From: Alphaproteobacteria bacterium | GTDB lineage: Bacteria; Pseudomonadota; Alphaproteobacteria; UBA828 | Direction of reading: 5' to 3' | DNA length: 64,000 nt | NCBI GenBank assembly: GCA_965237415.1 | Contig: CBDEFM010000002.1 | Coordinates: forward strand, 1,760,001-1,824,000 | Part shown: piece by piece, positions 1,748-46,800 of the stretch | Position numbering within the stretch: position 1 is the stretch's first letter | Layout of the letters: every line of letters begins with the position of its first letter | Notes under the pieces: generated by a model | What the model was told of the DNA's origin: nothing | The model's database searches: none | What the model saw: the letters and a program-made list of their open reading frames with translations, nothing else | Translations under genes and position numbers: made by a program

Positions 1748-1887
1748 GGTGCGACCTTCCTGACGTGAAGGGGCTCGGGGCTAGACGTACACGGATCATC
1801 AGGCGTCCGACGAGGAACCTCCATACAGCGCCCGGGCGACGACGGCGAGGGGGAGTATGAGCCTGAGCGGACCCGAGTACGGTCCGC

Positions 1888-2232
1888 CTATTGGCCTATG
1901 GTTATCGGCTGGCGCCTTCTGCCCCAGCGGCCCGGCGGGCCGTCGAAGACCCCGGCGGTCTGTGTGCCGCATGCGGTACAGGCTCCTCGGCCATCGAGCC
2001 GCCAGTCGGAGAGCTTGTACCAGTCGCGGCCGATGGTGCGCGTGCCGCACACGTGGCAGTAGGTCGATTGCCGGCCGAGGTCGTGGACATTGCCGGTATA
2101 GGCGTAGCGCACGCCGTTCCGCAGCGCGACGCGCCGCGCCATCGCCAGCGTGTCTGCCGGGGTGCGCGGCTTGTCGAGCATCCGGTAGTCGGGATGAAAG
2201 GCGCTGAAGTGCATCGGCACGTGCGCGCCCTC
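1888..2232 (-). pseudogene. C-terminal remnant of AmmeMemoRadiSam-type (AmrS/PflA-like) radical SAM enzyme
   Basis: VPMHFSAFHPDY...YAYTGNVHD...STYCHVCG...CTACG...GRWGRRR; no CxxxCxxC N-terminal part; homology stops at the TIR starting 2233. Confidence 0.8.
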
Positions 2233-2300
2233 TAACCCGCACGTCTCGCCACGGTCGCGGCCTGGCTCCCCGTCCCACCTCGGGCAGAATTCAATCTTGA

Positions 2301-2340
2301 GGCGGGATTCGGTGGGATTAAGTGGGATAAGTGGGATTCC
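2301..2340 (+). repeat. ~10-bp tandem repeat (GGGATTAAGT-like) with four GGG tracts
   Basis: GGG at 2304, 2314, 2324, 2333; same array at 39757-39806. Confidence 0.9.
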
Positions 2341-2492
2341 GTGAGACAAGGTCGCCCGTGCCTGAGTCGCGCAAGCCCGAGTCGCCCGCGCCTGAAAGGT
2401 CGCGGGCGCGCCAGATAGGGTCGTGCACGCGGAATAGGATCCCGCAAGCACCCCCGTCGCGCTCGCCGCGGCCCGTTCGCTCTTGCGCTGTA

Positions 2493-2507
2493 TGGCACGG
2501 CAATTGC
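2493..2507 (+). promoter_or_regulatory. Consensus sigma54 -24/-12 motif
   Basis: TGGCACGGCAATTGC = TGGCACG-N4-TTGC, GG-N10-GC spacing. Confidence 0.55.
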
Positions 2508-2604
2508 GCCGGCGGCGCGCAGACCGCGGCCGCGGTGAGACATCCGGGCCCCACGATGAGCCGGGCGCGCGTGTTCGGTTGCGGCGGATGCGGAGCCCCC
2601 GGCC

Positions 2605-3570
2605 TCACCCCGGTCCGCTCCATTCCGCAGGGCAGAAGGGAGGGTCGGTCGGCCAGAGTCGGCCTTCCGCCTCGCGCCGTCTCAGCTCGGCATCGCGCGC
2701 CCCGTGCGCGTCCCATGCATCGTCTGCTTGCGCGCGTGGACGCGCGACGCGCACCCCACGCGCGTCCGCATCCTGCGCCCCGTCGGCGGTAGGCGGATCG
2801 GGCGCCGGCTTCGGCAGGGTGACGGGAGAGTCCTCGGCAGAGGCCGCGGCCCACCCGGATGCCGGCGGTGGCGGCTCTGTGCGCCCAGGGAAGACGTGCC
2901 CCTCGAGAGCCCGGCGGACGGTCTCGACCCGTTCGGCATGCGTCATACTGGCCGCGCGCGCGGCCGGTCCGGCGTGCGCGGCGGCGGCATCGGCCGCCGC
3001 CTGCTCGCGCTCGATGCGGAGCTTGTCCGCGCTTTCGATACGGTAGAGCGCGAGGGCGAGGCGGGCGAGGTCCTCCGTCGGCACAGGCTCCGTGCGCTGG
3101 CTGAGCTCGGCCATCGTGCGGAGCGCCAGCGTTCGCAGGGTCTCGATCGCGATGAGGGCGCTAAGCCCCTCGGCGCGGGGGTCGCGCGTGCGCTCCCATT
3201 CCTCGGCAAAGCGAACGGTCTCGCGCTGCAGGCAGATCAGGCCGTCCATGCGCTCGGCCCAGCGGCCCTCGGCGGGTCGCGCCCGCGCGCAGCGTCGTGC
3301 GCGCGGGATCAAATCCGAACTCTCGCCGTCGCCCGCGCGGACGCGCGCCACGATCTCGTCCATGGTGGCGCCGCCCTCGATCGCTGCGGCGACGGCGTCC
3401 TGGATTGCGGCCGGCAGCGGCTCGTCCGGCGAGCGCTCGCTCTCGCACTGCGTCGCGCGGATACGCGCGCGGGAAGATGATCGACGCATGGCGCAAGTCT
3501 GACGCGGACGCTGCGCACCATGCACCGCACCATGGTCCGGAGTCGCCCGCGCCCGAAGGGTCGGGGGCAC
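2605..3570 (-). CDS. DUF3486-like (Mu-like phage gp27) protein; start uncertain (GTG 3570 or ATG 3489)
   Basis: LPAAIQDAVAAAIEGGATMDEIVARV...IAIETLRTLAL...EDLARLALALYRIESADKLRIERE resembles DUF3486; frame and C-terminus conserved in second copy. Confidence 0.65.
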   Translation of the reverse strand: MPPTLRARATPDHGAVHGAQRPRQTCAMRRSSSRARIRATQCESERSPDEPLPAAIQDAVAAAIEGGATMDEIVARVRAGDGESSDLIPRARRCARARPAEGRWAERMDGLICLQRETVRFAEEWERTRDPRAEGLSALIAIETLRTLALRTMAELSQRTEPVPTEDLARLALALYRIESADKLRIEREQAAADAAAAHAGPAARAASMTHAERVETVRRALEGHVFPGRTEPPPPASGWAAASAEDSPVTLPKPAPDPPTADGAQDADARGVRVARPRAQADDAWDAHGARDAELRRREAEGRLWPTDPPFCPAEWSGPG

Positions 3571-3717
3571 AGCATAAAGAGTCGCGCGACCCTGAGTCGC
3601 ACGCGCCCGAAGGGTCGCGGGCGCGGAACCAAGGTCGTGCGCGCGGCGAATTAGGGTACGCGCGCGTCACATAATGTCGTGCGCGCGGAACGAGACAGTG
3701 GCAGGAATTCCGAGTTA

Positions 3718-3757
3718 GGGACGGCTGCCTCGGATCGCTGGAGGCAGCCGTCTCCCC
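3718..3757. terminator. GC-rich hairpin abutting element end
   Basis: GACGGCTGCCTC-N9-GAGGCAGCCGTC inverted repeat; no U-tract. Confidence 0.4.
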
Positions 3758-4159
3758 TCGCTGGGCCCGCGTACCGGTCGGGGCCCGGACCGTCGAAATT
3801 GCTTACCCTTGGAACGCGCGTTTCTCGGCGACGAAATCGATTGACGTGAAGTCCTGCAACCTGAAGGGGCCTCCCCCACAGGAGCCGAGGTCGTTCACGG
3901 TAGCCTCCCCTCGGCCCGCCCTGATCGTTGCTGTGCCAGGGCGCTGACCACGCGATGCCTGCCTCGCTCCGACGATTATTCTAAGGCCGCATTCTTTGGC
4001 GGCGCCCAACCACGCGGCCGACAGTGCCTCCCTGCGATAACCGCGTCCAATAAGGAATTCTCATAAAGGGCATAAGCGCCCCTTATGCCCGGGCGGCATG
4101 GAATTGGCGTGAGAGACGTGTCGGGAATGGGTGCGCAGTACGCCTGCCGGGTGCCCCGG

Positions 4160-5524
4160 CTAATCCTCGCGCAGGGAGCGGTAGAAGAAGTCCGTCACGG
4201 GCTTGACCAGGAAGCTCATGACCGAGCGCTCCTCGGTGCGGATATGGGCTTCCACCGGCATGCCGGGCGTCAGCACCAGATTGCCGGCCACTCGGTTCGA
4301 GCCGCGCGCGGCCCCGGTCTCTTCCGCGTTTCCCGCCGCCGGGCCGGTGCCGTCAGGCCCGTCCAGCGCAAGCTCGACCTCGTACCAGGAGACTCCGCTC
4401 TCCGCATCGCGTACCGCATCAGGCGAGACCCGCACCACGTGCCCGTCGAATTCCGGCGTCACGCGCGCGGGAAAGGCGGAGAAGCGGAGTTTCGCATCCT
4501 GCCCGGGATAGACCTGATCCACGTTGATCGGATTGAGCCGCGCCGTCACCACCAGCCCGGCATCCTCCGGCACGATCTGCAGGATCGGCTCGCCCGGCCT
4601 CACCACCTCCTGCGGCGCGAGTACCGTGAGCCCGAACACCTCGCCCGAGACCGGCGCCCGCACCTCCAGGCGGCCAAGGCTGCGTTGGACCGAGGCGAGA
4701 CGCTCCTTGACCTCGTTCTCCCGCGCCTGGATATCGCGCGCCTGCTCTTCCGCCTCCTCGATGCGCCGCGCGTCGATCTGGAGAATCTGAATCTTCAGCT
4801 CTGCAATCTTGCCGCGGGCGCGGGCGATGGAGGCGGCGATGGCGCCCGAGCGCCCCTCCAGGTCCGCGGCGGCGCGCTCGATGGCCATCAGCCGGTCGAG
4901 CCGCGTGAGCCCCTTGTCGAACAGCGTCCGTTGCGCCGCGAGTTCGCGGTCGATCAGCACGGCCTGATCCTTCAACGAGGCCGCCTGCGCTTCCAGACCC
5001 GCGATCTCCTCGCGCGCCTGCCCGATCCGCTCGCGAATCTGCGCCACCTCGCCGGCCCGCGCCGCCTCCCGCGCCCGGAACAGCCGCTCCTGGCCGTCGA
5101 GGATCTGTTGCACCTGCGGGTCCGCCGCCGCCATGGTCAGAAGCTCTTCGTCCCAGACGATGGCCTCCGCACTCAGGAACTCCGCCTCCAGCCGGTTTCG
5201 CCAGGCCGCGAGCTCGGCGAACTGCGCCTTGAGGATCGCTTCGTCCGATCGCATTTGCCCGTCGCTGAAGCGCAGCAGCACGTCGCCCCGAGTAACGCGG
5301 TCGCCGTCTCGCACCAGGATTTCGCTCACCGTGCCGCCGTCTATGTGCTCGACAACCTGATTGCCGCTTTCGACCTCCACGAGCCCCGCCGCGATCACCG
5401 CGCCCGAGATGGAGGCGAACATGCTCCAACCGAGGAAGCCGCCGAAAAGGACCGCCACGCCCCCGAACCCAAGCACCAGCGCCCTCCCGGCCGAGGAGCG
5501 CCCGTGGGCCGTTCGCGCCGTCAC
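4160..5524 (-). CDS. HlyD-family type I secretion periplasmic adaptor (PrtE-like)
   Basis: N-terminal TM, VVEHIDGGTVSEILVRDGD, coiled coil, LTPGMPVEAHIRTEERS; GTG overlaps upstream TGA. Confidence 0.92.
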   Translation of the reverse strand: MTARTAHGRSSAGRALVLGFGGVAVLFGGFLGWSMFASISGAVIAAGLVEVESGNQVVEHIDGGTVSEILVRDGDRVTRGDVLLRFSDGQMRSDEAILKAQFAELAAWRNRLEAEFLSAEAIVWDEELLTMAAADPQVQQILDGQERLFRAREAARAGEVAQIRERIGQAREEIAGLEAQAASLKDQAVLIDRELAAQRTLFDKGLTRLDRLMAIERAAADLEGRSGAIAASIARARGKIAELKIQILQIDARRIEEAEEQARDIQARENEVKERLASVQRSLGRLEVRAPVSGEVFGLTVLAPQEVVRPGEPILQIVPEDAGLVVTARLNPINVDQVYPGQDAKLRFSAFPARVTPEFDGHVVRVSPDAVRDAESGVSWYEVELALDGPDGTGPAAGNAEETGAARGSNRVAGNLVLTPGMPVEAHIRTEERSVMSFLVKPVTDFFYRSLRED

Positions 5525-32158: not shown

Positions 32159-32427
32159 AAGCCCGGAGTTCTCACCAATGTCACGGCCTGCGTCGCACCC
32201 AGACGTTCGATCCGCCAGGAGTGAGCCGAAAAGCGTAGCGGTGTCTACGGTTGAGGTCCACGACGCCGCGGGCGGGCGTCTGGGCGCGACCCGAAGGGCG
32301 GCGCTGTCCGGCCGACAGTGTGCGTCACGCCGCTTGCCCGATGTCCCGCATCGCGCTGCACGCCGTTCCTGCCCTGTCGGCCGGACAGCGCCGCGCAGAC
32401 CATGACATTGGTGAGAATTCCGGGCTA
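32159..32427. mobile_element. MITE (~265 bp) of the same TIR family
   Basis: 33-nt ends 29/33 identical: AAGCCCGGAGTTCTCACCAATGTCACGGCCTGC vs rc TAGCCCGGAATTCTCACCAATGTCATGGTCTGC; internal 18-bp IR 32301-32318/32374-32391. Confidence 0.85.
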
Positions 32428-38728: not shown

Positions 38729-39700
38729 ATGGAAGGGGTGACGTGGTTCGTCCTGGTGATCGACGCGACGCTCCGCGTGTCGACGCCGCTCATCCTCGCC
38801 GCCTTCGCCGGCATGTTTGCCGAGCGCTCGGGCGTGGTCGATATCGGCCTCGAAGGCAAGATGCTGGGCGGAGCCTTCGCCGCGGCGGCAGCGGCGTTCG
38901 CCACCGGCTCAGCCTGGATCGGCCTGCTCGCCGGCATCGGGGCCTCGGTCGCGCTCGCGATGGTCCATGCCTTCGCCTGCGTCACTCACCGGGGCGATCA
39001 GGTGGTCTCGGGCATGGCGCTCAACATCCTGGTGGCGGGGCTCGGGCCAGTGCTGTCGCTCGCCTGGTTCGGCCAGGGCGGGCATACGCCGATGGTGGCG
39101 GATGCCGCGCGCTTCCGCCCAATTCACTTCCCCTTCGCCGACCGGTTGAGCGACGTGCCGTTCCTCGCCCAGATCTATTCGGAAATCGCCAGCGGCCACA
39201 ATCTGATCGTCTATATCGCGCTCGGCATGGTCCCGCTCGCGGCGTGGTTCATCTACAAGACCCGCTTCGGGCTGAGGCTCCGCGCAGTCGGCGAGGCGCC
39301 GGAGGCTGTGGACACCGCCGGCATCTCGGTCGCCGGCATGCGCTACCGGGCGATGATCGTCTGCGGCATCCTGTGCGGTATCGCCGGCACGTCGCTCTCG
39401 ATCGCCCAGAACGCGCTCTTCGTGCGCGATATGAGCGCGGGCATGGGCTATCTCGCGCTCGCTGCGCTCATCTTCGGCAAATGGCGCCCGGTGCCGACCC
39501 TCTTCGCCTGCTTCCTCTTCGCCTTCGCCGACGCCGTGCAGGCGAGGCTGCAGGGCGTCGATGTCCCAGGCGTCGGCGTCATCCCGGTGCAGGCGATCCA
39601 GGCGCTCCCCTACCTGCTGACCGTGCTGCTGCTCGCGGGCTTCGTCGGCAAGGCGGTCCCGCCCAAGGCGAGCGGCGTTCCCTACGTGAAGGAGCGTTAG
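38729..39700 (+). CDS. Nucleoside ABC permease 2
   Basis: ERSGVVDIGLEG, KTRFGLRLRAVGE, ends PYVKER; stop TAG coincides with element end. Confidence 0.92.
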   Translation: MEGVTWFVLVIDATLRVSTPLILAAFAGMFAERSGVVDIGLEGKMLGGAFAAAAAAFATGSAWIGLLAGIGASVALAMVHAFACVTHRGDQVVSGMALNILVAGLGPVLSLAWFGQGGHTPMVADAARFRPIHFPFADRLSDVPFLAQIYSEIASGHNLIVYIALGMVPLAAWFIYKTRFGLRLRAVGEAPEAVDTAGISVAGMRYRAMIVCGILCGIAGTSLSIAQNALFVRDMSAGMGYLALAALIFGKWRPVPTLFACFLFAFADAVQARLQGVDVPGVGVIPVQAIQALPYLLTVLLLAGFVGKAVPPKASGVPYVKER

Positions 39701-39908
39701 CCCGGATATCTCGCCGGGCTCACGGACTGCATCGGGCGGGCGAAGCATCAAATTAAGGCGGGATTCGGCGGGATTAAGTGGGATTAAGTGGGATAAGTGG
39801 TATTCCGCGGGGACAACCGCCCGCCGTCCTCCATGACCACGGCGGGGACTGCGGGCGGCCGCATTCCCTGCCTTCGCCTGCCGCCGCCCCGTTCGCTCTT
39901 GCGCTGTA

Positions 39909-39923
39909 TGGCACGGCAATTGC
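39909..39923 (+). promoter_or_regulatory. Consensus sigma54 -24/-12 motif (copy 2)
   Basis: TGGCACGGCAATTGC, identical to 2493-2507. Confidence 0.55.
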
Positions 39924-40022
39924 GCCGGCGGCACGCAGACCGCGGCCGCGGTGAGACATCCGGGCCGCACGATGAGACGGGCGCGCGTCTGCCTGGTCGC
40001 GGCGGAGGAGGAGCCCCCCGCC

Positions 40023-40659
40023 TCACCCTGGCCCGCTCCACTCCGCAGGGCAGAAGGGAGGGTCGGTCGGCCAGAGTCGGCCTTCCACCTCCCGCCGTCT
40101 CAGCTCAGCATCCCGCGCCCCGTGCGCGTCCCACGCGTCCTGTGCACCGTCGCCGGCAGGCGACTCGGACGTGGGGTCCGGCGGGGTGACGTGGGAGTCA
40201 GCGGGAGAGGCGGCGGCCCACCCGAATGCCGCCGGCGGCGGGTCTGTGCCCCCAGGGAAGAGGTGCCCCTCCATGGCCCGGCGGACGGTCTCGACCCGTT
40301 CGGCATGCGTCATAGTGGCCGCGCGCGCGGCCGGCCCGGCGTGCGCGGCGGCGGCATCGGCCTTCGCCTGCTCGCGCTCGACGCGGAGCCTGTCGGCGGC
40401 TTCGATGCGGTAGAGCCCGAGCGCGAGGCGGGCGAGGTCCTCCGTCGATACCGGTTCCGCGCGCTTGCCGAGCTCGGCCATCGTAACCAGAGCCAGCGTT
40501 CGCAGGGTCTCGATCGCGATGAGGGCGCTAAGCCCCTCGGCGCGGGGGTCGCGCGTGCGCTCCCATTCCTCGGCAAAGCGATCGGTCTCGCGCTGCAGGC
40601 AGATCAGGCCGTCCATGCGCTCGGCCCAGCGGCCCTCGGCGGGTCGCGCACGCGCGCAG
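40023..40659 (-). pseudogene. DUF3486-like gene copy 2, 3' part
   Basis: CARARPAEGRWAERMDGL...PTDPPFCPAEWSGPG matches copy 1; cut by IS21. Confidence 0.85.
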
Positions 40660-40813
40660 TGTCGATGACGGTCCAAAAGTGCGCCTATTCGCTGCATTCA
40701 GCACGTGAGTGCGGTGACGATGTAGCAGCTTGTTTGGCGGGTGGAAGCGTGCCTCGTCGGAGCTGTGGATAGGCGGCTTGTCGCAGCGACCGCCCTCGTC
40801 TATGGACGCCCCC

Positions 40814-41070
40814 GGTAATGCAAGCTTTTCTTTGAACGGCACGGTGCATGCGGTCAGGTGCTGTCGTCTATCCGGCCTGTTGATGCGGCATTTCGATCGC
40901 CGCTGGCCCGTATGGAGATACGCGAACCGGGTCCAAAATCGAGTCTGCGAGCTTGAACGCTCTCAGGACGGTGCTGGTTTTCCCGATCCGGTCTCATTGA
41001 CCGTATGCCCTCCTTACCTGTCCTCCGACCTGCCCACATCCCCGACGGCTTCCCGCGATTGTCCGCCCTG
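40814..41070 (-). ncRNA. Putative bridge/seek RNA of the IS1111-type element (exact ends unknown)
   Basis: Contains matches to both target flanks and to the element end (see findings). Confidence 0.8.
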
Positions 41071-42096
41071 TCAGGCGGTTGCGGGAACCCGATAGATCTC
41101 CTTCTTCGCCGTCACCGCCCAGGCGACGCGCGCCATTTTGTTGGCCAGCGCAACCGCGACGAGCATCTTCGGCTTGCGCGCCAGCATTTCGGCCAGCCAA
41201 GGATCCCTCGTCTCGCCACCACGGCGCTCCGCCGCTTGGATTACAGACATGGCACCCGTGATCAAGAGCCGCCTGAGATCGCGCTGGCCCATCTTCGATA
41301 CCTTGCCAAGCCTTGGCTTGCCGCCAGTCGTATGCTGTCGCGGCACGAGGCCTAGCCAGGCGGCGAAGTCGCGCCCGCGCCTGAAGCTCTCCATCGGTGG
41401 GGCGAAAGCCTGTACTGCCATGGCCGTGATCGGCCCGATGCCCGGGATCGTCATGAGCCGTGCCGCCTCTTCGTCCTGGCGTGCGCAAACGCGGAGCTCC
41501 TTCTCCAAATCGTAGATCTTCGCATCGAGGTCTGAGACCTGACCGAGCAGTAGGTCACCCAGCTCGCGAACCGGCTCCGGTAGCCCCGAGCTCGGATCCA
41601 TGAGTGCCGCCTCCAGCCGCTTGACATGAGCTGGCCCCTGTGGAGCGATGACGCCGAACTCCGCCAGGTGACCCCGTAGCGCGTTAATCGTCTGCGTGCG
41701 CTGGCGCACCAGGAGGTCGCGTGTGCGGAACAGCATCCCTCGAGCCTGCTGCTCTTCCGTCTTCACGGCCACCAAGCTCATGGTGGGGCGCTGCGCGGCC
41801 TCGCAAGTCGCCTCCGCGTCCCTCGCGTCATTTTTCTGCCGTTTGACGAATGGCTTGACATATATCGGTGGGATTAGCTTGACCTCGTGTCCGAGCATCT
41901 CGGTCTCTCTACCCCAATAGTGAGCGCTCGCGCAGGCCTCCATCGCCACCACGCAGGGCGGTTGCGAGGCGAGGAAGTCGAGTAGCTTGCCCCGGCTCAG
42001 CTTCTTGCGGAACACAACGGACCCGTCTGCCCGCGCACCATGCAACTGAAAGCTGTGCTTCGCCAGATCGATCCCGATGATGCTAGCCTGATCCAT
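41071..42096 (-). CDS. IS110-family recombinase/transposase
   Basis: IGIDLAK, AMEA, KNDARDAE (DEDD), IPGIGPITA, WLGLVPRQHTTGGK; RBS GGAGG before ATG 42096. Confidence 0.96.
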   Translation of the reverse strand: MDQASIIGIDLAKHSFQLHGARADGSVVFRKKLSRGKLLDFLASQPPCVVAMEACASAHYWGRETEMLGHEVKLIPPIYVKPFVKRQKNDARDAEATCEAAQRPTMSLVAVKTEEQQARGMLFRTRDLLVRQRTQTINALRGHLAEFGVIAPQGPAHVKRLEAALMDPSSGLPEPVRELGDLLLGQVSDLDAKIYDLEKELRVCARQDEEAARLMTIPGIGPITAMAVQAFAPPMESFRRGRDFAAWLGLVPRQHTTGGKPRLGKVSKMGQRDLRRLLITGAMSVIQAAERRGGETRDPWLAEMLARKPKMLVAVALANKMARVAWAVTAKKEIYRVPATA

Positions 42097-42441
42097 GGAG
42101 GCCTCCTCCCTCAGGTGGTTCGACACCACCACCTTGGCACGATTCGCTGCCGTCGGGAGGGGGCGTCCACTCCCTCGAGTCTGGCAAGGCAAGCCGGCTA
42201 TCCACAGCGGGCAGGCGTCGCGATTCCGGTGGCGGCGGGCGAACTGGCGGCAGCCCCTCGGACCTGAACAGCAAGATCGGTAGGGCTACACTCGGGCCGC
42301 TGAGAACGATGCGGCGCCGGCCACGTCTGCTTGGTGGCAAGAGCCGGCGCCGCACCCCCCGAGCCATGCTCGGCACGGCCCAGATGCACAGTATCGTGCG
42401 GGTTTTGGCGGGGGTCGAGCCCGTTCTCATCGACCGCCGCG

Positions 42442-42888
42442 ATGAGGAACTTCGGCCGCCTGTTCAACTGCGCCCACTGCGATCGGCAGGTGGTTCTCTG
42501 CCCGCGCTGCGACCACGGCAACATGTACTGCTCAGCGGACTGCCGCGAGACGGCGCGCAGGCAGGCGCAGCGTCTTTGCGGGCAGCGCTATCAGGACAGC
42601 CTCCAGGGTCGTCGCAAGCACGCGCAGCGGCAGCAGCGCTATCGCGATCGGCACCGGCGTCGGGTGCCGGAGAATGAGGTCTGCGCGCAGAAAGTGACGC
42701 ATCACCCTTTGACCCGCGGGCACCGTCGTCCTGTTGTGCCACAGACGCCGATGACGCGTCGCGGGACACAACCCTTTGGGCACGGGCGGCCTGCCAGGGT
42801 CTTCCGCTGCCATCGCTGCGGCCGGTTCTGCGCGCAGTTTGTCCATCCGGGCCTGCGCCCGGTCCGGCATCCGGCACGAGAAGGGTGA
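42442..42888 (+). CDS. Cys-rich putative zinc-binding protein inside the IS21
   Basis: CAHC, CPRC, CSADC, CHRC motifs; basic; stop 1 nt before istA ATG. Confidence 0.7.
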   Translation: MRNFGRLFNCAHCDRQVVLCPRCDHGNMYCSADCRETARRQAQRLCGQRYQDSLQGRRKHAQRQQRYRDRHRRRVPENEVCAQKVTHHPLTRGHRRPVVPQTPMTRRGTQPFGHGRPARVFRCHRCGRFCAQFVHPGLRPVRHPAREG

Positions 42889-42889
42889 G

Positions 42890-44395
42890 ATGACCATCGA
42901 CAAGAAGACGCGCGCGGAGATCCTGCGCCTCCATTACGCCGAGAAGTGGAAGATCGGCACGATCGCAAACCAACTCGGCGTCCATCACATCACGGTCCGC
43001 CGCGTTCTGGCCGACGACGGGGTGCCTCGGCATATGAGGCGGCACCGGCGCTCGAAGCTCGATCCCTTCATGCCCTTCATCCGCCAGACACTGGCTCACT
43101 ATCCGAAGCTGACCGCCAGCCGGCTCTACGAGATGGCGTGCGAGCGCGGCTACCAGGGGAGCCAGAGCCACTTCCGCAACATGATCGCCCCCGAGCGGCC
43201 GAAGCCTGTGGCCGAGGCCTATCTGCGTCTCAAGACCCTTCCCGGCGAGCAGGCCCAGGTCGATTGGGGACACTTCGGCAAAGTGAAGCTCGGTCGCGCG
43301 GAGCGCCCGCTGATGGGCTTCGTGATGGTTCTGAGCTTCTCGCGACGCATCTTCCTGCGCTTCTACCTCAACGCCGCGATGAGCAACTTCCTGCGTGGCC
43401 ATATCGACGCCTTCGAGGCGTGGCAGGGCGTGCCCCGCGAGCTCTGGTACGACAACCTGAAGAGCGTCGTGCTGGAGCGCCGCGGCGACGCCATCCGCTT
43501 CAATCCCCAGTTCCTCGACTTCGCCGGCCACTACCGTTTCCTGGCACAGCCCGTCGCGATCGCGCGCGGCAATGAGAAGGGGCGCGTGGAACGGGCGATA
43601 CGCTACGCTCGCGACAGCTTCTTCGCCGCTCGCTCATGGCGCGATATCGACGACCTCAACGCCCAGGCCCAGGCCTGGTGCGATGGCATCGCCGCCGAGC
43701 GGCCCTGGCCCGAAGACCACTCCATCAGCGTGCGCGAGGCCTTCGAGCGGGAACGCAGCTCTCTCATTGCGCTGCCCGGCGATCGCTTCCCCGCCGACGA
43801 ACGGGTCGAGGCCTCCATCGGCAAGACCCCTTACGTCAGATTCGACCTCAACGACTACAGCGTGCCGCACACCCATGTGAGCCGCACTCTCGTCGTCCTC
43901 GCGACCCTCGACGAGGTGCGCATCCTCGACGGCGCGGACGTCATCGCCACCCATCCACGCAGCTTCGACAAGGCAGAGCGTGTCGAAAACCCCGACCACA
44001 TCGCCGGCCTGGTCAGGCACAAGCGTCATGCCCGGCGCCTTCGCGGGCAGGATCGGCTGGTCCAGGCCGCGCCCAACAGCGAGCGCCTGCTCACCGACGC
44101 CGCCAAGCGCGGCAGCAATCTCGGCACCATCGTCGCCGCCCTACTGCGCCTCCTCGACGGGTACGGCGCCGCCGAGCTCGAGGCGGGCATCGACGAGGCC
44201 CTGAAGCGCGGCGTCCCCCATCCGAACGCCGTGCGCCTGAGCCTGGCCCGGCGGCGCGAACTGCGAGACGAGCCCCCGCCCATCCCCGTCGACCTGCCCA
44301 AGCATCCACGCCTGCGCGATATCGCGGTGCGCGACCACGATCTCGGCGGATACGACGGACTGGCCGGTGGGCCCGAAGAGGACAGCGAAGAATGA
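42890..44395 (+). CDS. istA: IS21 transposase
   Basis: N-terminal [34 protein letters not shown]. Confidence 0.95.
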
Positions 44396-45201
44396 CCGAC
44401 ACCCTCAAGGACCGTGCCCGCGCGCTGCGCCTGTACGGCCTCATCGCCCACTGGGACGACATCGGCGAGTGCAGCTGGCTGCCCACCCTCATCGCCTGGG
44501 AAGAGGAAGAACGGCGAAGCCGCAGCCTCAAGCGGCGCCTCAGCGAGGCCCGCATTGGACACTTCAAGCCCCTCGTCGACTTCGATTGGGACTGGCCCCG
44601 CCGCTGCGACCCAATGGTCATCGAGGACCTCATGAGCCTCGAGTTCCTGCGCGAGGCCGCCAACGTCGTCCTCGTCGGCCCAAACGGGGTGGGCAAGTCC
44701 ACCATCGCCGCCAACCTCGCCCACCGCGCCATCATCGAGGGGCACACCGTGCGCTTCACAACTGCAGGAAACATGCTCGGTGAGCTCGCCGCCCTCGATA
44801 GCGACAGCCTGCTCCAGCGCAAGCTCCGATTCTACGCCCGCCAACAGCTGCTGGTGATCGACGAGGTCGGCTACCTCTCCTATAGCAATCGCCATGCCGA
44901 TCTGCTGTTCAATATCGTCTCCAGCCGCAGCCAGCAGCGCTCCACCATAATCACCACAAACCGGCCCTTCGCCGAGTGGAGCGAAGCCTTCCCCAACGCC
45001 GCCTGCGTCGTCGCCCTCGTCGACCGCCTCATCCACAACGCCGAGATCATCGCCATCGACGGCGATTCCTATCGCCGAAAGGAGGCCGAGGAACGCCAGA
45101 AGAAGCGCAGCGCAGAGCGCCGCCGCCGCCGGGGCGCAGCAGGCCGTCGGCGAGCCGGAAAGGCCGACGCCCTGGACCGCGAGCCGCCGTCGGCGGCGTA
45201 G
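44392..45201 (+). CDS. istB: IS21 helper AAA+ ATPase
   Basis: GPNGVGKS, LLVIDEVGY, IITTN, VDRLIH, GDSYR. Confidence 0.95.
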   Translation: MTDTLKDRARALRLYGLIAHWDDIGECSWLPTLIAWEEEERRSRSLKRRLSEARIGHFKPLVDFDWDWPRRCDPMVIEDLMSLEFLREAANVVLVGPNGVGKSTIAANLAHRAIIEGHTVRFTTAGNMLGELAALDSDSLLQRKLRFYARQQLLVIDEVGYLSYSNRHADLLFNIVSSRSQQRSTIITTNRPFAEWSEAFPNAACVVALVDRLIHNAEIIAIDGDSYRRKEAEERQKKRSAERRRRRGAAGRRRAGKADALDREPPSAA

Positions 45202-45418
45202 TCATAGATCGTCTCTCGCCATGGTACGGGCGGGTGCAGGCCGAGACCCTGAGAGCCTATCCCCTCGAAGGCGTCGCGCGATCCCTCGGCTACCGCCGCG
45301 ACCCCGATGTCGATGACGCACCCTGGAGGCACCTCGGATTGATCGTCAGCATCAACCGCCGACCACGTCCAACTCCAGAAATGCAGCAAATACGCGCATT
45401 CCTAAGCCGTCGCTAACA

Positions 45419-45616
45419 CGCGCAGCGTCGTGCGCGCGGGATCAAAGGCGAACGGTCGCCGCCCCGCGCACGGACGCGCGCCACGATCTCGTCCATGGTG
45501 GAGCCGTCCTCGATGGCTGCGGTCACGGCGTCCTGGATTGCGGCCGGCAGCGGCTCGTCCGATGAGCAGTCCCCGCCCATCGCACCTGCCGTGCCCGGCG
45601 TGCTCTCGCACTGCAT
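45419..45616 (-). pseudogene. DUF3486-like gene copy 2, 5' part
   Basis: DEPLPAAIQDAVTAAIEDGSTMDEIVARVRA...LIPRARRC joins in frame to the 3' part across the TSD. Confidence 0.85.
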
Positions 45617-45744
45617 GACGCGATCCTGGCGCGCGCGCCGAGCACCGTGCACCGCACCATGGTCCGTCGCCCGCGCCCGCAGGGTCGCGGGCGCGGTATC
45701 AGGGTCCCGTGCGACGCCGACCATGACCGCGAGAAAATTCCGGG

Positions 45745-46800
45745 CTAGAGGCGGAGGCGTTCTCGCGTGAGATGGATGAGGCGGGCGAGGCCGTGCGGCT
45801 CGACGATCAGGATCACGATGATGAAGCCGCCGAAGATAATGACCTCGAGATGCTTGGCGAGGTCGACGGGAAAGTCGATGCCGAGCATCGTGTTCAGGTT
45901 GGTGAGGAAGATCGGCACGACGGTGATGAAGGCCGCGCCGATGATGGAGCCCGCGATCGAGCCGAGGCCGCCGACGATGACCATGAAGAGCACGAGGAAG
46001 GAGAGGTTGACGTCGAAGGCGAGCGTCTCGGCGCTGCCCAGATAGAGGAAGACGAAGAGCGAGCCCGCGACGCCGCAGAGATAGGAGCTCACGGCGAAGG
46101 CGAGAAGCTTGGTGCGGAGCAGCGGGATACCCACGATCTCGGCGGCCACGTCCATGTCGCGCACCGCCATCCAGGCGCGGCCGAAGCGGCTGCGCATCAG
46201 GTTGCGGGCGAAGAAGACGAAGACCGCGACGAAGACCAGCGCCACCAGATAGCGCACCTCGGCGGCCGCCTCCGGCCCGGTGATCATGACGCCCGCGAAT
46301 TTGCGCGGCGGTGCCGTGATCGTGCCGGACGGGTTGTCGTTGTAGAACCAGGGCACCCGGTTGAAGAGCCAGATCAGGAAGAACTGCGCCGCGAGCGTCG
46401 CCACCGCCAGATAGAAGCCCTTGATGCGCAGGCTCGGCAGGCCGAACAGGATGCCGACGCCGGCGGCGAAGAAGCCCGAGATGAAGAAGATGGCGATGAT
46501 GTCGACCCCGGGCCACGCGGTCGTCATCTTGTAGGTGGCGTAGGCGCCGACCGCCATGAAGCCGCCGGTGCCGAGCGAGAGCTGGCCTGCGAAGCCGGTG
46601 AGCAGATTGAGCCCGAGCGCCGCGAGCGCGAATATCAGGAAGGGGATCAGGATCGCCTGCAGCCAGTACTCGTTCGCGAGCGTCGGCACCGCGAAGAGGG
46701 CGAGCAGCGTGATCACGGTCACGAAGACGGTATCGATCGAGCGCGAGCGGGTCGCGAAGAGGGCGTTGCAGAGGTCGGTGAAATAGGCGCGCACGGTCAC
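45745..46800 (-). CDS. Branched-chain amino acid-type ABC permease (LivM-like)
   Basis: LNLLTGFAGQLSLG, GFYLAVATLA, VGGLGS; stop TAG coincides with element end. Confidence 0.9.
   Translation of the reverse strand: MTVRAYFTDLCNALFATRSRSIDTVFVTVITLLALFAVPTLANEYWLQAILIPFLIFALAALGLNLLTGFAGQLSLGTGGFMAVGAYATYKMTTAWPGVDIIAIFFISGFFAAGVGILFGLPSLRIKGFYLAVATLAAQFFLIWLFNRVPWFYNDNPSGTITAPPRKFAGVMITGPEAAAEVRYLVALVFVAVFVFFARNLMRSRFGRAWMAVRDMDVAAEIVGIPLLRTKLLAFAVSSYLCGVAGSLFVFLYLGSAETLAFDVNLSFLVLFMVIVGGLGSIAGSIIGAAFITVVPIFLTNLNTMLGIDFPVDLAKHLEVIIFGGFIIVILIVEPHGLARLIHLTRERLRL

Follow-up and report, generated by a model that had tools for sequence, protein, structure and literature searches.

Why does a right-hand transposon end that lacks its target dinucleotide lie in the middle of an element, next to an intact gene? 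The question is raised by positions 2235-3715 of a 64,000-nucleotide stretch of an alphaproteobacterial genome (the stretch as a whole is called the window; the genome is called G000 and is 95.96% complete). This element, composite A, is bounded by terminal inverted repeats (TIRs) of a family of miniature inverted-repeat transposable elements (MITEs) and carries a gene related to phage Mu gp27 and to small terminase subunits. A further right TIR lies inside it, at the 3′ side of the gene. An earlier note on this DNA had read that internal end as the footprint of a MITE that passed over its own right end and captured a neighbouring gene. We arrived at a different answer, namely that the 32-nt sequence is, on balance, probably the right TIR of a gene-less MITE-like member of this lineage-specific, non-autonomous family (2235-2549) that lies head-to-tail with the gene-bearing part of a second member (2552-3715). 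On this answer the internal end is a relic at the seam of two fused relatives and not the footprint of the capture of a gene from outside. Among gene-bearing copies it is not universal, nor is it stable. The gene copies in G000 are labelled A-J and fall into two subfamilies, A-F and G-J, and the relatives referred to by label are a sister genome (G004) and three others (G007, G018 and G020).

The window contains two exact occurrences of one 31-mer, both on the minus strand (2519-2549 and 39935-39965), and none of 100 dinucleotide shuffles contained even two matches to it with up to three mismatches. A position weight matrix (PWM) for the TIR was built from 36 ends of 18 full copies of the 268-bp MITE, of which G000 has 19 full-length copies, and a gapped nhmmer profile was used as a second model. 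The PWM gave 28.8 bits for the internal TIR of composite A (2518-2549, minus strand; nhmmer E 6e-7) and 28.8 bits for that of a second element, composite B (39934-39967 including two flanking bases, with the TIR ending at 39965, minus strand; nhmmer E 2e-7). The two ends of the window's own reference MITE, which has the same TIR family (32161-32425, plus strand; inverted repeat I7), scored 48.8 and 52.5 bits. Throughout G000 there were 185 PWM matches of at least 8 bits, and 4 Mb of shuffled sequence, scored with the same PWM as the null, gave two matches of at least 8 bits, one of at least 16 and none of at least 20. The internal 32-mer also contains the right-end signature GGTCTGCGC. These results confirmed that the internal sequence is a genuine right end of a TA-flanked MITE family, as the earlier note had proposed together with the shuffled-sequence control, which the internal match far exceeds. 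The claim that CC or CG replaces the expected TA was equally accurate, as direct reading gave CC at 2550-2551 in A and CG at 39966-39967 in B.

Between copies A, B and C the internal 32-mer shows 100% identity. A third exact occurrence in G000, at G000:C2:3921220, is also internal, adjoins a copy of the gene and is flanked by CG. Because the exact sequence is found only three times in G000 and every time internally, the left-hand unit does not appear to have moved alone. The outer tip of the internal repeat faces the gene, and the repeat is therefore the right end of the left-hand unit rather than an end of the gene module.

The family to which this end belongs uses TA as its target. The 268-bp MITE copies are mostly flanked by TA, and the 185 TIR matches are followed by TA in 131 cases, TG in 16 and CA in 15, so that 29% are without TA. 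All 11 orthologous loci examined in relatives are without the window's 268-bp MITE. In the closest relative the empty site reads GCCGGGTTAGGGAG (GTTAGG), compared to CCAA, the MITE and then TAAGGAG in G000, where the left copy of TA is now AA. The empty site fits insertion at TA, as in the IS630/Tc1-mariner group.

Composite A has a TA outside its left end at 2233-2234, seen by direct reading as the flank of the PWM match, and a left TIR at 2235-2266 (plus strand; PWM 22.4 bits; nhmmer E 2e-5). It continues with tandem GGGATTAAGT boxes in units of 9-10 bp (2301-2341, plus strand; repeat family D6) and with a GC-rich hairpin repeat of the GAGTCGCCCGCGCCTGAAAGGTCGCGGGCGCG type that is found in short elements too (2364-2410, plus strand; repeat family D5). 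A remnant of the gene's start region in this gene-less left unit (2475-2517, minus strand) was recognised by its alignment to short elements and to the intact gene's 5′ end; its start codon is mutated and an internal piece is missing, and it is 95.9% identical to copy B. Beyond the internal end comes the intact gene for a 294-aa Mu gp27/small-terminase-like protein (2605-3489, minus strand; PF11985, 29.4 bits compared to a curated cut-off of 28 bits). Upstream of it are an operator-like near-palindrome, GCACCGCACCATGGTCCGG (3523-3541; CCGCACCATGGTGCGG occupies the equivalent place in G-J), the hairpin repeats of the right module (3525-3625, plus strand; repeat family D5) and the distal right TIR (3684-3715, minus strand; PWM 10.0 bits; nhmmer E 0.007), which is followed by TA at 3716-3717.

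Composite B (39700-45745) is split by an insertion sequence (IS) of the IS21 family. It starts with TA and a left TIR (39698-39731, plus strand; PWM 19.4 bits; nhmmer E 2e-6) and GGGATTAAGT boxes (39757-39807, plus strand; repeat family D6). The 3′ part of its gene is at 40023-40659 on the minus strand (PF11985, 22.1 bits on the open reading frame (ORF) 40023-40697, which extends 38 bases into the IS), and the 5′ part, with the ancestral-type start MQCES, is at 45420-45616 on the minus strand, as aligned with copy A (repeat family D4). Direct reading placed the operator-like motif at 45648-45666. The distal right TIR, which ends at 45745, lies with its TA at 45713-45747 on the minus strand; it holds an indel that makes it invisible to the ungapped PWM, and was caught by nhmmer (E 5e-4). 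The left units, 2235-2549 in A and 39700-39965 in B, are 315 and 266 bp long. The description of these units as MITE-sized thus stood, with TA and left TIR at 2233/2235 and 39698/39700, and so did the placing of a DUF3486-like gene between the internal end and distal right ends (3684-3715 and 45713-45745).

No homology was found between the flanks of A and B, and the similarity between the two is bounded exactly by TA plus the left TIR on one side and the right TIR plus TA on the other. Because the similarity at two unrelated loci starts and stops at these ends, we infer, on moderate evidence, that the composite moved through its outermost ends and that the internal end was skipped. Neither composite has a native transposase ORF, and each consists of outer TIRs and one gp27-like gene.

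The gene itself recurs with the family. A BLAST search of window positions 2200-3780 against G000 gave 154 high-scoring segment pairs, and GGGATTAAGT boxes were found at 63 loci, 10 with the gene and 53 without it. The general layout is a left TIR, two to eight GGGATTAAGT or GGGATAAGT boxes, GC-rich hairpins, the gene on the opposite strand with its start codon, an operator-like motif, hairpins and a right TIR, with the operator-like motif, either GCACCGCACCATGGTCCGG or the perfect palindrome CCGCACCATGGTGCGG, about 45 bp upstream of the start. All 10 gene copies in G000, from both subfamilies, lie within 1.5 kb of a GGGATTAAGT box cluster, which is always at the 3′ side of the gene. The two subfamilies share about 50% amino-acid identity. 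The A-F proteins are about 290-300 aa long, with a 12-aa insertion and a conserved C-terminal tail, WPTDPPFCPxxWSGPG, and their ORFs were intact in eight of eight tested cases from three genomes (dN/dS 0.46-0.78). In G-J the gp27-like part is about 190 aa long, the frames of 249-316 aa stay open through the boxes, and the layout is simple: boxes that abut the gene end directly, the gene, and the perfect palindrome CCGCACCATGGTGCGG. In other genomes of the genus, the operator-like 9-mer was present within about 160 bp upstream at 34 of 46 related loci.

The gene-less elements that we read still have the operator-like motif or promoter of the gene, its start codon and its first codons, typically a stretch of 55-100 nt. 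As they retain this region, the simplest reading is that the short elements derive by deletion from gene-bearing parents, as MITEs do from their parents. Together with the position of all 10 copies beside boxes, the same retention makes it simplest to regard the gene as probably the family's own and not as captured foreign cargo. The proposal that a MITE had captured the gene as cargo was not sustained by these observations.

A variable unit was seen at the start of the gene. In copies A (3455-3489), C, D and E the ancestral start codon is followed by an in-frame insertion of the hairpin unit GTCGCGCGGATACGCGCGCGGGA, 27-36 nt long, which gives the N-terminus MRRSSSRARIRAT-QCES. One to three tandem copies of the GTCGCGCGGATACGCGCGCGGGA unit are present in gene-less elements, for example at G000:C2:1280880-1281320.

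The junction between the short element and the gene was compared among the A-F type genes (six in G000, and seven loci in G004 and G007). In every case a short element, whole or partial, stands before the gene, and never boxes alone. A complete short element with its right TIR, followed by TG, was found in G004 (L035, 25.9 bits) and in G007 (L038, 17.2 bits). Copies A, B and C keep the right TIR, followed by CC or CG, and are missing the operator and hairpin of the short element; copies D, E, F and G004 L036 keep the operator and hairpin and are missing the right TIR. In G004 L031, L032 and L033 the start remnant abuts the gene flank. Since the sequence just past the repeat in A/B/C (CACGATGAGCCGGGCG) has its homologue in L035 (AAACACGAGCCGGGCGG), the junctions have one origin. 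The earlier note had suggested examining whether gene-bearing copies always have a damaged internal end. This did not hold, as three of the six close copies (D, E and F) have no internal end.

A fusion of two members would account for these states as follows. A short member could have landed just downstream of the gene within a full-length member, after which the inner left TIR and the outer right TIR would have been used together, and the short member's own right end, now internal, would have been carried along unused. Deletions would since have removed the internal end in D, E, F and several sister-genome copies, and gene conversion between copies would have reshaped the composites. Related MITEs do insert at that position, as a complete MITE is nested between the gene end and the boxes at L127. 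This locus was initially counted as a third relative with an internal end and was set aside when it was read as the nested MITE. The composite type is old, as it is present in three species of the genus.

Several results weigh against a fusion followed by movement of the composite. By both PWM and nhmmer, the internal TIRs fit the profile better than do the outer ends of A and B, and the distal right TIR of A is weak at 10.0 bits. The dS values of 0.15-0.25 between copies in G000 indicate old copies with no sign of recent mobility. For copies A, B and D no empty site of any composite was recovered. Copy A adjoins a radical-SAM-like gene that is truncated, and the flank on the right of A lacks synteny and was not found in relatives; the right flank of B is not syntenic either, and the relatives have a TGA stop and a convergent gene there. 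Copy D is absent in four relatives, but the site is a repeat cluster and D is without a right TIR. None of 11 DDE_3 loci in G000 and none of 28 sampled DDE_3 loci from 15 congeners (of about 150 matches) were flanked by TIRs of the family, so no cognate transposase was recovered among them. Two further results, the mosaic structure of copy A and the difference between a pair of orthologous copies, bear on how the junction spread.

The left module of copy A is a mosaic. Its left TIR and hairpin region are 75-78% identical to D/E and 40-58% to B/C, whereas its remnant and internal repeat are 94-97.5% identical to B/C and 58-60% to D/E/F. The junction could therefore have spread by recombination or gene conversion as well as by transposition. 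Segment by segment, junctions in the pairs B-C and D-E are 98-100% identical where the genes are 84-95% identical. Copy E, which has no internal end, is orthologous to G004 L035, which has one (the flanks align at 91% and 84%), and L035 contains about 100 extra bases that include the internal repeat. An internal end has thus been gained or lost at a fixed locus, by deletion or conversion. Recombination between copies has clearly taken place. It might even be that the internal end is a passive relic, shared by A, B and C through gene conversion or recombination and not through a composite's transposition, and that the lack of TA reflects ordinary decay with no functional meaning, given that CA and TG are the commonest non-TA flanks genome-wide (31 of 185). 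We consider this possible but rather unlikely. Copies A and B occupy two unrelated loci with precise outer boundaries of TA and TIR, which would still need explaining, and conversion accounts for the similarity of the junctions but not for the origin of the composite layout. The fusion of two members remains our preferred reading, with conversion as a part of its later history.

The loss of TA at the internal end was also considered. None of five internal ends has TA (CC in A, CG in B, CG in C, TG in G004 and TG in G007, on the plus strand of the element), and copies with an intact internal TA, which according to the earlier note would speak against end-skipping if common, were not found (0 of 5). 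On the repeat's own strand, TA, CA, CG and GG can be linked by single substitutions. The five ends are not independent, as A, B and C represent one junction, probably shared with L035, which leaves perhaps two to three events. The association between TA loss and an internal position is suggestive at best. A bias towards internal ends without TA is expected, because composites with a working internal end would fall apart. A flanking TA is reported to be needed for excision in some Tc1-type transposons; here its absence might be what disables the internal end.

The capture originally proposed, in which a MITE beside an unrelated host or phage gene suffered decay of its right TA and then used a distal right end to take the gene along, would give the anatomy that is observed: a left TIR, an internal right TIR without TA, the gene, and a distal right TIR with TA. 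It would also agree with the contrast between 0 of 5 internal ends with TA and 131 of 185 ends genome-wide, but, again, perhaps two or three independent events underlie the five ends. At another locus the family does have real cargo, a MazE-like/PemK pair framed by its repeats at G000:C2:780561-781634, and it can thus move other genes. Nevertheless, we find capture very unlikely for the gp27-like gene. In both subfamilies the gene is tied to boxes and operator in all 10 copies, the operator-like 9-mer recurs upstream in 34 of the 46 loci in other genomes, short elements hold the gene's own start region, and what lies to the right of the gene is a family member's right part rather than random host DNA. 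The idea of end-skipping therefore survives in part: composites bounded by TA and outer repeats at two unrelated loci are in its favour, while the foreign nature of the cargo is not upheld, the gene being native to the family.

Retention of the internal repeat as a binding site, through which the gp27-like protein or a transposase would regulate the gene or the element, is the least probable explanation: three copies with a difference of 6-15% between their genes have the 32-mer at 100% identity, this variant contains the perfect 14-bp palindrome ACCGCGGCCGCGGT, and the TIR core shares CATGGTC with the operator, but half of the close copies lack the repeat and have intact ORFs, recent conversion accounts for the identity equally well, no U-tract is present that would make an intrinsic terminator, and no Rfam match was found in window positions 1800-4200. 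Two other readings of the internal repeat were rejected as well: an intrinsic terminator for the missing T-run, and a double binding site of the inverted-repeat/direct-repeat (IR/DR) type for the orientation of the repeat, which compared to the left end is inverted and not direct.

The composites were then compared with known systems. In the Bacillus cereus group, mobile insertion cassettes (MICs) such as MIC231 have IS-type inverted repeats around one or more genes, contain no transposase and are presumed to be mobilised in trans by the transposase of the parent IS. The composites resemble them in the inverted repeats that bound a gene, in the absence of a transposase inside and in the presumed mobilisation in trans, but they differ in the extra internal end and in that the gene they carry is no variable passenger but one that recurs in 10 copies and belongs to the family itself. 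ISEcp1, in the IS1380 family, encodes a transposase of its own next to the left end, generates duplications of 5 bp and takes along unrelated genes downstream by means of alternative right ends. The likeness to ISEcp1/IS1380 is loose and lies in a proper right end being passed over for a distal, imperfect one. In the present case the fused parts are two non-autonomous members of a single family, the unit contains no transposase and it is flanked by TA, so that the analogy drawn in the earlier note does not carry over.

A further comparison is with TIMEs, small elements with inverted repeats that derive from Tn3, which have 38-bp repeats, 5-6 bp duplications and AT-rich targets, with mobility shown experimentally (PMC4133298). 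As described there, miniature elements of this kind mobilise DNA between two ends and form composite-transposon-like non-autonomous units with functional modules inside, which is the likeness to the composites (PMC4133298); the composites differ in their TA flanks, and their mobility is only inferred. ISY100 of the IS630/Tc1-mariner group has a TA target, TA on both sides and TIRs of about 30 nt (PMC2170065), and the composites share the TA on both sides and the TIR length. None of the 11 DDE_3 genes in G000 and none of the 28 sampled congener loci carry these repeats, and an IS630 derivation of the family is unproven. Larger TIR pairs in G000 (0.4-3.6 kb) were found, from ORF translations inspected by eye, to contain ordinary chromosomal genes and no transposase. 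The transposase for the family presumably acts in trans.

The gp27-like protein was placed in its sequence family by two profiles. All 11 aligned members matched PF11985 (Phage_Mu_Gp27, the former DUF3486; best E 1.8e-28), all 11 matched phrog_426 (terminase small subunit; best E 8.4e-34), and relatives in the library numbered 897 at E ≤0.001. An AlphaFold2 model was all-helical, with an N-terminal helix pair followed by long helices (pLDDT 74.2, pTM 0.41), and gave no Foldseek match in the PDB at E ≤0.001. Compared to Mu gp27 and other small terminases, with which it shares the sequence family (PF11985, phrog_426), the gene here occurs as ten dispersed copies in TIR-bounded repeats and not as one copy beside a large terminase. 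A search of G000 for the large terminase families PF03237 and PF03354 gave no match, with other TerL families outside the search. In the literature searched, where the element motifs did not occur as text, nothing was found on multicopy small-terminase-like genes in inverted-repeat elements.

One reading of the protein is that it might be the family's own sequence-specific DNA-binding factor and recognise the GGGATTAAGT boxes and the palindromic operator, which we regard as decidedly unlikely on present grounds. In phages, pac sites lie within terS genes, and the G-J frames that stay open through the boxes would echo this arrangement. If the reading were true, the elements could be transposable 'terS plus pac-like' modules, with an infecting phage or gene-transfer agent packaging from dozens of chromosomal sites; or the protein could be a recognition protein for transposon ends and boxes, that is, a domesticated small terminase working with a nuclease in trans. 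Binding to boxes or ends would then mean that a transposable element employs a phage packaging protein in a way not described before. The TIR core (CACCAAGGTCATGGTCTGCG, for example 32395-32425) and the operator-like motif (CACCGCACCATGGTCCGG, for example 3523-3541) share CACC…CATGGTC. One protein could read both, or the common core may be due to chance.

The seam is modest in novelty, and the transposase-less repeat family around a small-terminase-like gene is the more interesting part, with 63 loci per genome, 10 of them with the gene, conserved across an uncultured alphaproteobacterial genus. The lesson for annotation is that theft of a gene by a MITE does not follow merely from an internal inverted repeat lying next to that gene.

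The unit with the MazE-like/PemK pair, which lies outside the window (G000:C2:780561-781634; L089 162-1235), is a TIR-bounded unit of the family of 1,073 bp. Its left part consists of a left TIR, degenerate boxes, a hairpin, a start remnant and the operator-like motif, and about 10 inner bases are left of the short element's own right repeat before the cargo. The cargo is a MazE-like antitoxin (PF11455, 85 bits) and a PemK/MazF toxin (PF02452, 82 bits), followed by the distal repeat and TA. At G000:C1:170489-171061 (L090) a TA-flanked repeat pair of 572 bp closely brackets a 138-aa ORF that is RidA/YjgF-like by eye; this is either a small cargo unit or two solo ends.

At the left side of composite A, the ORF 1888-2232 represents the C-terminal part of a longer gene, which in eight relatives extends far upstream. 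It is radical-SAM-like by eye, and Pfam gave no match on the 114-aa remnant. The gene is truncated about 14 bp before the TA of A and its remainder is not on the other side, and a deletion or rearrangement must therefore have accompanied the element. Scans of metagenomes with the right flank of A and with the internal repeat gave no matches in either case. At copy D a weak nhmmer 'right TIR' was rejected, as it is the 3′ end of a host gene.

Composite B lies at a hot spot, the stop codon of an ABC-permease gene (window 39696-39700; loci L061, L071 and L076). A box-type element is present at this site in G000 and G004, another TIR element in G018 and a mini-MITE of about 55 bp, with two repeats only, in G020, and fifteen other relatives have TGA and no element. 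In G000 the stop codon reads TAG, with the element's first base as its final letter. The IS21-family insertion that splits B occupies 40660-45419 on the plus strand (IstB_IS21, 190.8 bits) and is flanked by a 6-bp duplication, GCGCAG, at 40654-40659 and 45420-45425. IstA is encoded at 42887-44392 and IstB at 44392-45198, and a nested IS110-family transposase gene (Transposase_20, 82 bits) lies at 41074-42096 on the minus strand. Finally, a dispersed repeat with hairpins of the GCCCGGACTCGTTCCGGGC type, which runs from TCCCGTTNCC to TTCGTTTGCATGTTGTCGGGCCGG, adjoins members of the box family at two loci, G000:C2:1503107-1503337 and next to the short element at C2:1251000, and is present in many copies in G004.

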